From Acinetobacter phage vB_AbaS-Bhz15: a stretch of DNA of 64,000 bases. Below, in pieces: positions 26,807 through 26,881 of this stretch. How positions within the stretch are numbered: the first letter of the stretch is position 1; the number at the start of each line of letters is the position of its first letter. Made by a program: the position numbers and the translations under genes. The notes below the pieces were generated by a model. The model saw only the letters and a program-made list of their open reading frames with translations. It ran no database searches and was not told where the DNA came from. The stretch is taken from the sequence record PV067732.1. One strand, written 5' to 3'.

Positions 26807-26881
26807 CGTCGATTAGGTTAGCGGTTAGACCAACAGACTCTAAATCTGGGTGCCGGAGTTCGAATCTCCGATCGACGACCA
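26807..26881 (+). tRNA. tRNA with anticodon CUA (amber-reading suppressor-type)
   Basis: Cloverleaf: acceptor CGTCGAT/ATCGACG, D-stem GGTT/GACC, anticodon stem ACAGA/TCTGG (27-43 is A.G). The anticodon loop CTCTAAA has U33 and A37 and gives anticodon CTA at 26840-26842. T-arm is CGGAG-TTCGAAT-CTCCG. Discriminator A and an encoded CCA. Confidence 0.65.

Follow-up and report, generated by a model that had tools for sequence, protein, structure and literature searches.

The stretch of 64,000 nucleotides of Acinetobacter phage vB_AbaS-Bhz15 analysed here (sequence record PV067732.1; below, the window) carries a transfer RNA (tRNA) gene with the anticodon CUA, which pairs with the stop codon UAG. 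ARAGORN called this gene with cta at position 34, and Rfam gave a full-length match to RF00005 (26807-26878, model 1-71; 60.7 bits, E 1.2e-10, gathering score 29), a score within the range of the other tRNAs of the same cluster (32-76 bits). In the Rfam alignment, CUA likewise occupied positions 34-36 with U33 and A37 in place, and the gene thus shows the sequence hallmark of an amber suppressor, CUA in a loop of seven nucleotides in which 33 is U and 37 is a purine. The positions of the gene, of its parts, and of the other features discussed are collected in table 1.

The CUA tRNA gene and its conservation

The acceptor stem (CGTCGAT/ATCGACG, 7 bp) begins with C1-G72 and is followed by A73 and an encoded CCA; U8 A9 (UA) link it to the D arm, GGTT-AGCGGTTA-GACC (as RNA, GGUU-AGCGGUUA-GACC), in which the 8-nt loop includes G18 G19. 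A single base lies between GACC of the D arm and the anticodon arm, ACAGA-CUCUAAA-UCUGG, with its 5-bp stem; a 4-nt variable loop (GUGC) and the T arm CGGAG-TTCGAAT-CTCCG complete the structure. The only non-standard pair in the Rfam alignment was A27.G43, and the bases that make tertiary contacts were all present in the sequence and the alignment (U8, A14, G15-C48, G18 G19, T54-Psi55-C56, and A58). With a cloverleaf of 7/4/5/5 bp, as in a canonical elongator tRNA, and a score above the curated threshold, the element is a canonical class-I tRNA with the anticodon CUA. A preliminary description of the locus had given the T arm, the 7-bp acceptor stem, A73-CCA, the loop CUCUAAA, U33, A37, and A27.G43, all accurately, and its reading of the anticodon as CUA was upheld by both programs.

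The novelty that this description had attached to the gene was overestimated, since GenBank annotation and three papers precede it; the gene itself is no discovery. Ten other Hadassahvirus records have the same gene with one base different (74/75 identical; matches of 99.1%), the D-loop C of the window being T in the alignment with AbTZA1, AB-Navy71, and Acj9. The GenBank label is 'tRNA-TERM / tRNA-Sup-CTA' in AbTZA1 (NC_049445) and 'tRNA-Pyl' in Maestro, AB-Navy71, Acj9, ZZ1, and Konradin; ARAGORN gives the label 'Pyl' to any CUA tRNA. Sup(CTA) is listed in the ZZ1 paper, together with its Acj9 homologue (PMC4177764), and in the paper on DLP1/DLP2 (PMC10051250), and the gene is mentioned in the Maestro paper (PMC9247103); the three list it without discussing its function. 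The present analysis contributes evidence that selection acts on the gene across genera and a search for read-through targets with a negative outcome.

A 5-kb query around the tRNA matched Acinetobacter phage AB-Navy71 at 97.6% identity with 100% coverage and other Hadassahvirus genomes (Straboviridae, Twarogvirinae) at 93-96%; judged by these matches, the phage of the window is a Hadassahvirus, a T4-like phage of Acinetobacter baumannii. Human phage therapy has already made use of members of this group, among them AB-Navy71, Maestro, and AC4 (PMC9247103). The CUA tRNA is the first of nine tRNAs called by ARAGORN in a T4-style cluster, and upstream of it lie gp4, gp2, gp3, gp1, 57A, 57B, and then two small open reading frames (ORFs). 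According to the T4 annotation, the syntenic slot in T4 holds tRNA-Gln, the first tRNA of that phage.

A CUA tRNA was found in the same slot, after 57B and the two small ORFs and behind the leader AAAAGTTACTTT, in at least four genera: in 10 records of Hadassahvirus, in Acj9 (genus Acajnonavirus), in 4 records of the ZZ1 type (genus Zedzedvirus), in 37 records of Lazarusvirus (Konradin and 36 others), and in PhT2 and AB1I1M-1. Three forms of the tRNA were distinguished. Type A (window, Acj9, and ZZ1) has C1-G72, A73, a D arm of the form GGUU..GAC(C/U), and a 4-nt variable loop; type B1 (Lazarusvirus) has A1-U72, A73, a D arm GCUC..GAGC, and a 5-nt variable loop; and type B2 (PhT2 and AB1I1M-1) combines the B1 anticodon arm with G1-C72, has a single U bulging from the 3' strand of the acceptor stem, and still folds as a cloverleaf. 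The two B2 genes (L137 1206-1282 in PhT2 and L138 1205-1280 in AB1I1M-1) have the bulge in common, and their pair 7-66 co-varies (G-C vs A-U). PhT2 is itself a Hadassahvirus, yet has the B2 allele in place of type A. Pattern searches of IMG/VR aimed at further homologues returned known isolates only. Three identical 90-nt CUA tRNAs with a long variable region and the arm ACAGA-CUCUAAA-UCUGG were observed in unrelated IMG/VR viral contigs (L004 531-620, L011 7422-7511 (-), and L013 6607-6696 (-)).

Stem pairs were counted on a hand-made structural alignment with the window copy as the reference. Acj9 showed 8 compensatory and 2 one-sided changes, with 1 non-standard pair (the shared A27.G43); ZZ1 showed 10 compensatory changes with neither one-sided changes nor non-standard pairs; and Konradin showed 13 compensatory changes and 1 one-sided change, again with no non-standard pair. 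The anticodon arm is 100% identical in Acj9 and is compensatorily replaced by GGAGU/ACUCU in ZZ1 and by GAGAC/GUCUU in Konradin, while CUAAA (34-38) and A73 are invariant in all sequence forms. Because the stems change compensatorily while CUAAA and A73 never change, we concluded that the element, as judged by its pattern of substitution, is a working tRNA under selection, specifically on the CUA anticodon. The mismatch A27.G43 had raised the worry of a decayed tRNA, which the comparison dispelled: the mismatch is conserved in Acj9 and is G.U in ZZ1 and Konradin, and the other stem pairs were kept through 8-13 compensatory changes. Mismatches at 27-43 were also observed in other tRNAs of these phages, for example in tRNA-Lys of Acj9.

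Genetic code and candidate read-through targets

Full genomes of AbTZA1, Acj9, and Konradin were assembled and their ORFs picked greedily; these three genomes are the scope of the results in this section unless another is named. TAG ended 15/247 ORFs in AbTZA1, 12/256 in Acj9, and 14/244 in Konradin, and 7 of about 99 in the window, which amounts to roughly 5-7% of gene ends, and the 244-256 ORFs tile each genome under code 11. Genome-wide, TAG made up about 21% of the three stop triplets, and the in-frame stop upstream of genes was TAG in 146/746 cases; this share equals that of the triplet, so, except at gene ends, TAG behaves like any other triplet without a coding role. In alignments, genes that terminate in TAG reach the ends of their orthologues; the exceptions, in Acj9, are a homing-endonuclease fragment and a glucosyltransferase homologue with a frameshift. 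Neither in-frame TAG in genes nor conserved TAG-bridged ORFs were found. Recoding as in code 15 was therefore rejected, TAG being a rare genuine stop, and these phages use the standard code; the dominance of TAA and TGA that had been noted in the window was borne out by this tally. The glucosyltransferase homologue is 373 aa long in AbTZA1 and Konradin, and in Acj9 (43153-44276(-), L144) it is broken up into two ORFs that differ in frame, one of them 222 aa long and terminated by TAG; this represents a frameshift and not a TAG bridge. The Acj9 primase, seemingly split or truncated, proved intact.

The preliminary description had proposed that the tRNA causes programmed read-through of TAG-terminated genes. 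When orthology was determined by blastp for all TAG-terminated ORFs, no TAG-terminated gene was common to the three genomes, and where AbTZA1 and Konradin shared a TAG, the lengths of the extensions differed. The median extension after TAG was 9, 11.5, and 6 aa, the same as after TAA/TGA and in phage 133. In the window, the TAG that closes gp4 (head completion) is followed in the same frame by gp2 (DNA end protector), which begins three codons on, and read-through would fuse the two; this arrangement is not conserved, as gp4 ends in TGA in Acj9 and Konradin. A second pair of in-frame ORFs, the first of which ends in TAG (table 1), is not conserved either. A scan for upstream TAG-bridged ORFs yielded nothing conserved except a TAG upstream of alc: between rnlA and alc lies a small ORF whose stop is TAG in AbTZA1 (79136-79372), Konradin (136852-137088), and Acj9 (141611-141832), and whose frame in Konradin is that of alc. 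Several TAG stops lie within TAGTTTAC, including that of the rnlA-alc small ORF in AbTZA1 and Konradin, and the TAG context in Acj9 is TAGTTTTGT. We take TAGTTTAC to resemble the -35 element of T4 early promoters, and the TAG upstream of alc is probably conserved through promoter overlap. A conserved leaky stop with a conserved in-frame extension was thus not found in any gene of the three genomes, and gene-specific programmed read-through is not supported.

Neighbouring elements

The leader AAAAGTTACTTTAA, directly 5' of the tRNA, is unchanged among the window, AB-Navy71, AbTZA1, and Acj9, and it also precedes the tRNAs of Konradin, fHyAci03, and AB1I1M-1; it is probably a processing or expression signal. 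A promoter scan detected no consensus promoter site adjoining the tRNA, the nearest strong one lying upstream (table 1). The counterpart in Acj9 (L003 3903-3995) of the degenerate tRNA-like element upstream was called as an odd 93-nt 'tRNA-Tyr(GTA)' with C1-G72. Downstream of the suppressor, a tRNA-like RNA is closed by a stem of 8 bp, contains both a D-like and a long hairpin, and carries ACCA at its 3' end; it is conserved in AB-Navy71 and AbTZA1, was called by no tRNA tool, and recalls in its placement rnaC/rnaD, which are annotated in the tRNA cluster of T4.

Several protein-coding neighbours were also observed. The gene annotated '57B / RNA ligase', about 750 bp upstream of the suppressor, encodes Acb1, a phosphodiesterase directed against the cyclic oligonucleotide-based antiphage signaling system (anti-CBASS). 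Inside the tRNA cluster, a 78-aa ORF with an RF-1 domain aligns to residues 234-300 of RF2, and the catalytic GGQ motif is replaced by GASNW, GARRW, KHSNW, or QTTWG in all five homologues examined (window, Acj9, ZZ1, Konradin, and fHyAci03). This ORF occurs in 66 Acinetobacter phage records, suppressor-less phages among them, and a strict link between it and the suppressor was rejected, as it is present in 133 and Ac42, both without suppressor. Farther downstream, an NrdC.11-like 'nucleotidyltransferase' gave a Pfam match to RlaP (RNA repair pathway, DNA polymerase beta family), and the DNA polymerase is encoded by two genes, 43A and 43B, with several small ORFs between them, a split likewise annotated in AbTZA1, Acj9, and Konradin.

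Table 1. Positions in the window of the CUA tRNA gene, its parts, and the other features discussed
Feature	Position	Strand	Evidence
tRNA gene, anticodon CUA, class I, 75 nt, A73 and encoded CCA	26807..26881	+	ARAGORN; Rfam RF00005; sequence
Anticodon CTA (34-36), inside loop CUCUAAA at 26838-26844	26840..26842	+	ARAGORN position 34; Rfam alignment
Anticodon arm including the A27.G43 mismatch	26833..26849	+	Comparison with Acj9, ZZ1, and Konradin
D-loop base C, variable position	26822	+	Alignment; 99.1% identity matches
Conserved leader, directly 5' of the tRNA	26793..26806	+	Alignment across relatives
Degenerate tRNA-like element just upstream	26690..26785	+	Rfam tRNA 20.4 bits, below gathering score; folding z-score +0.6
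tRNA-like RNA 5 nt downstream of the suppressor	26887..26987	+	Fold -28.4 kcal/mol, z-score -1.9
Nearest strong promoter site	26075..26103		Promoter scan
57B (acb1)	25604..26062	+	Pfam PF23474, E 1e-50
ORF of 78 aa with RF-1 domain	27713..27949	+	Pfam, E 5e-11
NrdC.11-like 'nucleotidyltransferase'	35381..36442	+	Pfam RlaP, E 3e-12
Class II synthetase-like core, 194 aa	40644..41228
DNA polymerase gene 43A	53441..54949	+	
DNA polymerase gene 43B	56669..57898	+	
gp4, ending in TAG	22568..23017
gp2, in frame with gp4	23027..23866
gp4-gp2 read-through product, predicted	22568..23866	+
ORF ending in TAG	49508..49708
ORF in frame with the preceding one	49718..49954

Charging, function, and comparison with known suppressor systems

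The amino acid carried by the tRNA had been described as unclear, and this assessment stood when identity elements were compared, as no decisive isotype emerged. The nearest tRNAs in related phages and T4 were those for Ile, Asn, Arg, or Met, at 52-57 of 75 bases. The resemblance to tRNA-Ile is mostly due to the shared acceptor stem CGTCGA-. A scan of IMG/VR for the D-arm pattern gave Glu, Gln, and Lys at about 53/75 bases. Among the 120 bacterial-genome matches listed for the type-A anticodon arm with G34, the four real tRNAs were all tRNA-Tyr. A sense-tRNA parent was found neither in related phages and T4 nor in the IMG/VR D-arm scan or the bacterial anticodon-arm scan. U35 and A73 are the basis of lysine identity, and Lys is the residue inserted by several amber suppressors with U35 (PMC9976931); because A73 and U35 fit lysyl-tRNA synthetase (LysRS), Lys is our best guess by E. 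coli rules. The Gln identity set comprises U1-A72, G73, G2-C71, G3-C70, and G10 (PMC9976931), and GlnRS wants G73 and a weak 1-72 pair, whereas the tRNA of the window has C1-G72 and A73; phage tRNA-Gln genes are not its closest relatives, although the first-slot synteny with T4 fits tRNA-Gln. The bacterial TyrRS set includes A73 and U35, but it also calls for a long arm and G1-C72 (sets in PMC9976931); C1-G72, A73, U35, A36, and a short variable arm together make up the archaeal/eukaryal Tyr set, a match that we regard as a curiosity. The anticodon determinants of Pro and Glu are missing. The preliminary description had excluded Ser, Leu, and Tyr: the exclusion of the long-arm Ser and Leu was sustained, while bacterial Tyr is unlikely rather than strictly excluded. 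A class II synthetase-like core of 194 aa was observed in the window, in which motif-2-like and motif-3-like arginines are invariant in 36 homologues; its fold match is generic class II, with SerRS, HisRS, HisZ, and PylRS scoring alike. A strict link between this core and the suppressor was rejected, since Acj9 has the suppressor without a homologue and Acj61 and fHyAci03 have the protein without the suppressor.

On balance, we consider it somewhat probable that the gene encodes a functional tRNA that is kept by selection and acts as a general, partial suppressor of UAG. The tRNA would be part of the cluster transcript, and RNase P and 3' exonucleases of the host would trim it, CCA being encoded; a host synthetase would charge it, most likely LysRS (U35 and A73), with Gln or Tyr as alternatives; and A37 would probably be modified by host MiaA, because the A36-A37-A38 context is present. 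The charged tRNA would then compete with release factor 1 at UAG, and a fraction of ribosomes would read through UAG on every phage and host mRNA of the infected cell. Given the standard code and the lack of a conserved UAG-dependent gene, the benefit would not lie in decoding reassigned codons of the phage itself, and a general benefit is more likely, such as perturbed host termination, buffered amber mutations, or an answer to a host defence.

Several observations weigh against a general suppressor. Phages 133, Acj61, and Ac42 have no CUA tRNA, so it is dispensable in some lineages, and fHyAci03 has lost it, the 5' half being fused to the 3' half of the neighbouring tRNA-Met(CAT); this chimeric tRNA (NC_049438, L139 about 1219-1293), whose 5' half is of the Lazarusvirus type, represents recombination between neighbouring tRNA genes. 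ZZ1 has C33 in place of the near-universal U33, in the loop CCCUAAA (L016 5197-5270 (-)), and the acceptor stem of PhT2 and AB1I1M-1 carries the bulged U. In addition, the search of AbTZA1, Acj9, and Konradin revealed no gene that would benefit, and general suppression would be expected to do slight damage to the 12-15 genes of the phage itself that end in TAG. In phage 133, which lacks the suppressor, TAG is just as rare (6/78 ORFs), so TAG usage appears to be without adaptation to the tRNA; the sole hint of adaptation was a scarcity of A at +4 after TAG (12% vs 26-33% after TAA/TGA, n=41).

Other explanations were weighed against these data. That the tRNA serves programmed read-through of particular TAG genes, such as gp4-gp2, and thereby yields extended or fused products is unlikely: the in-frame TAG of gp4, that of the second ORF pair, and the rnlA-alc small ORF with its TAG in three genera argue for it, but two in-frame neighbours among seven TAG ORFs are what chance predicts (one in three), and the orthology, the extension lengths, and the promoter overlap described above argue against it. 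Similarly unlikely is a role outside decoding, in which the RNA would be a decoy or antidote against a tRNA-targeting defence (e.g., an anticodon nuclease) or a structural or processing element of the precursor, and the CUA loop would be kept for recognition. The location beside the anti-CBASS gene acb1, in a variable region rich in homing endonucleases, the tRNA-Tyr arms among the matches listed, and the lack of a UAG-dependent gene are consistent with such a role; however, the elements needed in translation are all conserved (acceptor stem, A73-CCA, G18 G19, T-loop, and A36-A37-A38), a CUA tRNA cannot stand in for a cleaved Tyr, Lys, or Gln tRNA in decoding, and the three tRNA bodies have in common only the loop and A73, as decoding and charging require. 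It is also rather improbable that the gene marks a step toward TAG reassignment or is a near-neutral passenger without specific benefit, which would be tolerated because TAG is rare and extensions are short and would persist through homing-endonuclease exchange in the cluster. TAG ends only 5-6% of genes, with median extensions of 6-11 aa, alleles have been replaced (PhT2), losses occur, and homing endonuclease genes lie nearby, all of which would suit a passenger, but a neutral gene would not keep 20/21 stem pairs through 8-13 double changes or CUAAA unchanged in three forms and at least four genera, and no sign of incipient in-frame TAG use was seen.

An orthogonal pair, in which the 194-aa core charges the suppressor, appears very improbable. 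PylRS enzymes that lack the N domain charge a CUA tRNA with the catalytic core alone, and the invariant arginines of the core would agree with such an activity; against it, whole-genome tblastn found no homologue in Acj9, ZZ1 was not among the matches at E<1e-30, the protein occurs without suppressor in Acj61 and fHyAci03, its family extends over 272 phage records, of which 112 are of E. coli phages, and its fold match is generic. Scarcely credible is a decayed or non-functional pseudogene: A27.G43, the neighbouring tRNA-like remnants, and C33 in ZZ1 could point that way, but the Rfam score is in the range of the window's other phage tRNAs, the stems evolved compensatorily without broken pairs, and 27-43 mismatches are a feature of other tRNAs of these phages. 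A more speculative and quite improbable extension would make the suppressor part of a phage toolkit that rewires translation termination, together with the catalytically dead, GGQ-less RF-1-domain protein and possibly the 194-aa core as its own charging enzyme, the aim being to overcome a host defence or to disrupt host protein synthesis; if true, this would be deliberate, virus-driven suppression of stop codons in a standard-code lytic phage. For the general, partial suppressor that we favour, the consequence would be that infected cells read through UAG stops, which bears on host takeover and on engineering based on amber codons.

The CUA anticodon is shared with E. coli supF (tRNA-Tyr CUA) and supE (tRNA-Gln CUA) and with the psu+ suppressor derivatives of T4 tRNAs, and the loop CUCUAAA with A37 and A38 is that of supF and of efficient synthetic suppressors. 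Those suppressors, however, are laboratory-selected, single-mutation derivatives of sense tRNAs, whereas the tRNA of the window is a wild-type gene conserved across genera and has no identifiable sense-tRNA parent. With tRNA-Pyl, it shares only the anticodon CUA. tRNA-Pyl has a small D loop without G18 G19, a 6-bp anticodon stem, a 3-nt variable loop, a single base linking the acceptor stem to the D stem, and a T loop that is lacking or altered, in contrast to the D loop with G18 G19, the TTCGAAT loop, the 5-bp anticodon stem, the two-base linker U8 A9, and the 4-nt variable loop found here; the architecture is canonical, and identity as tRNA-Pyl was therefore rejected. The AbTZA1 annotation contains no pyl genes (pylS, pylBCD). 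TAG-recoded phages of code 15 (crAss-like, Lak, and others) also encode a CUA tRNA in a standard-code host, Sup-CTA tRNA having been reported in 375/715 of them (PMC11210395). In code-15 phages, in-frame TAG is present in many, often late, genes, whereas here TAG is a rare stop and none was found in frame. With this comparison, the question of why phages retain suppressor tRNAs can be put to a system that is culturable and uses the standard code, and the present phages could show whether suppressors precede stop-codon reassignment.
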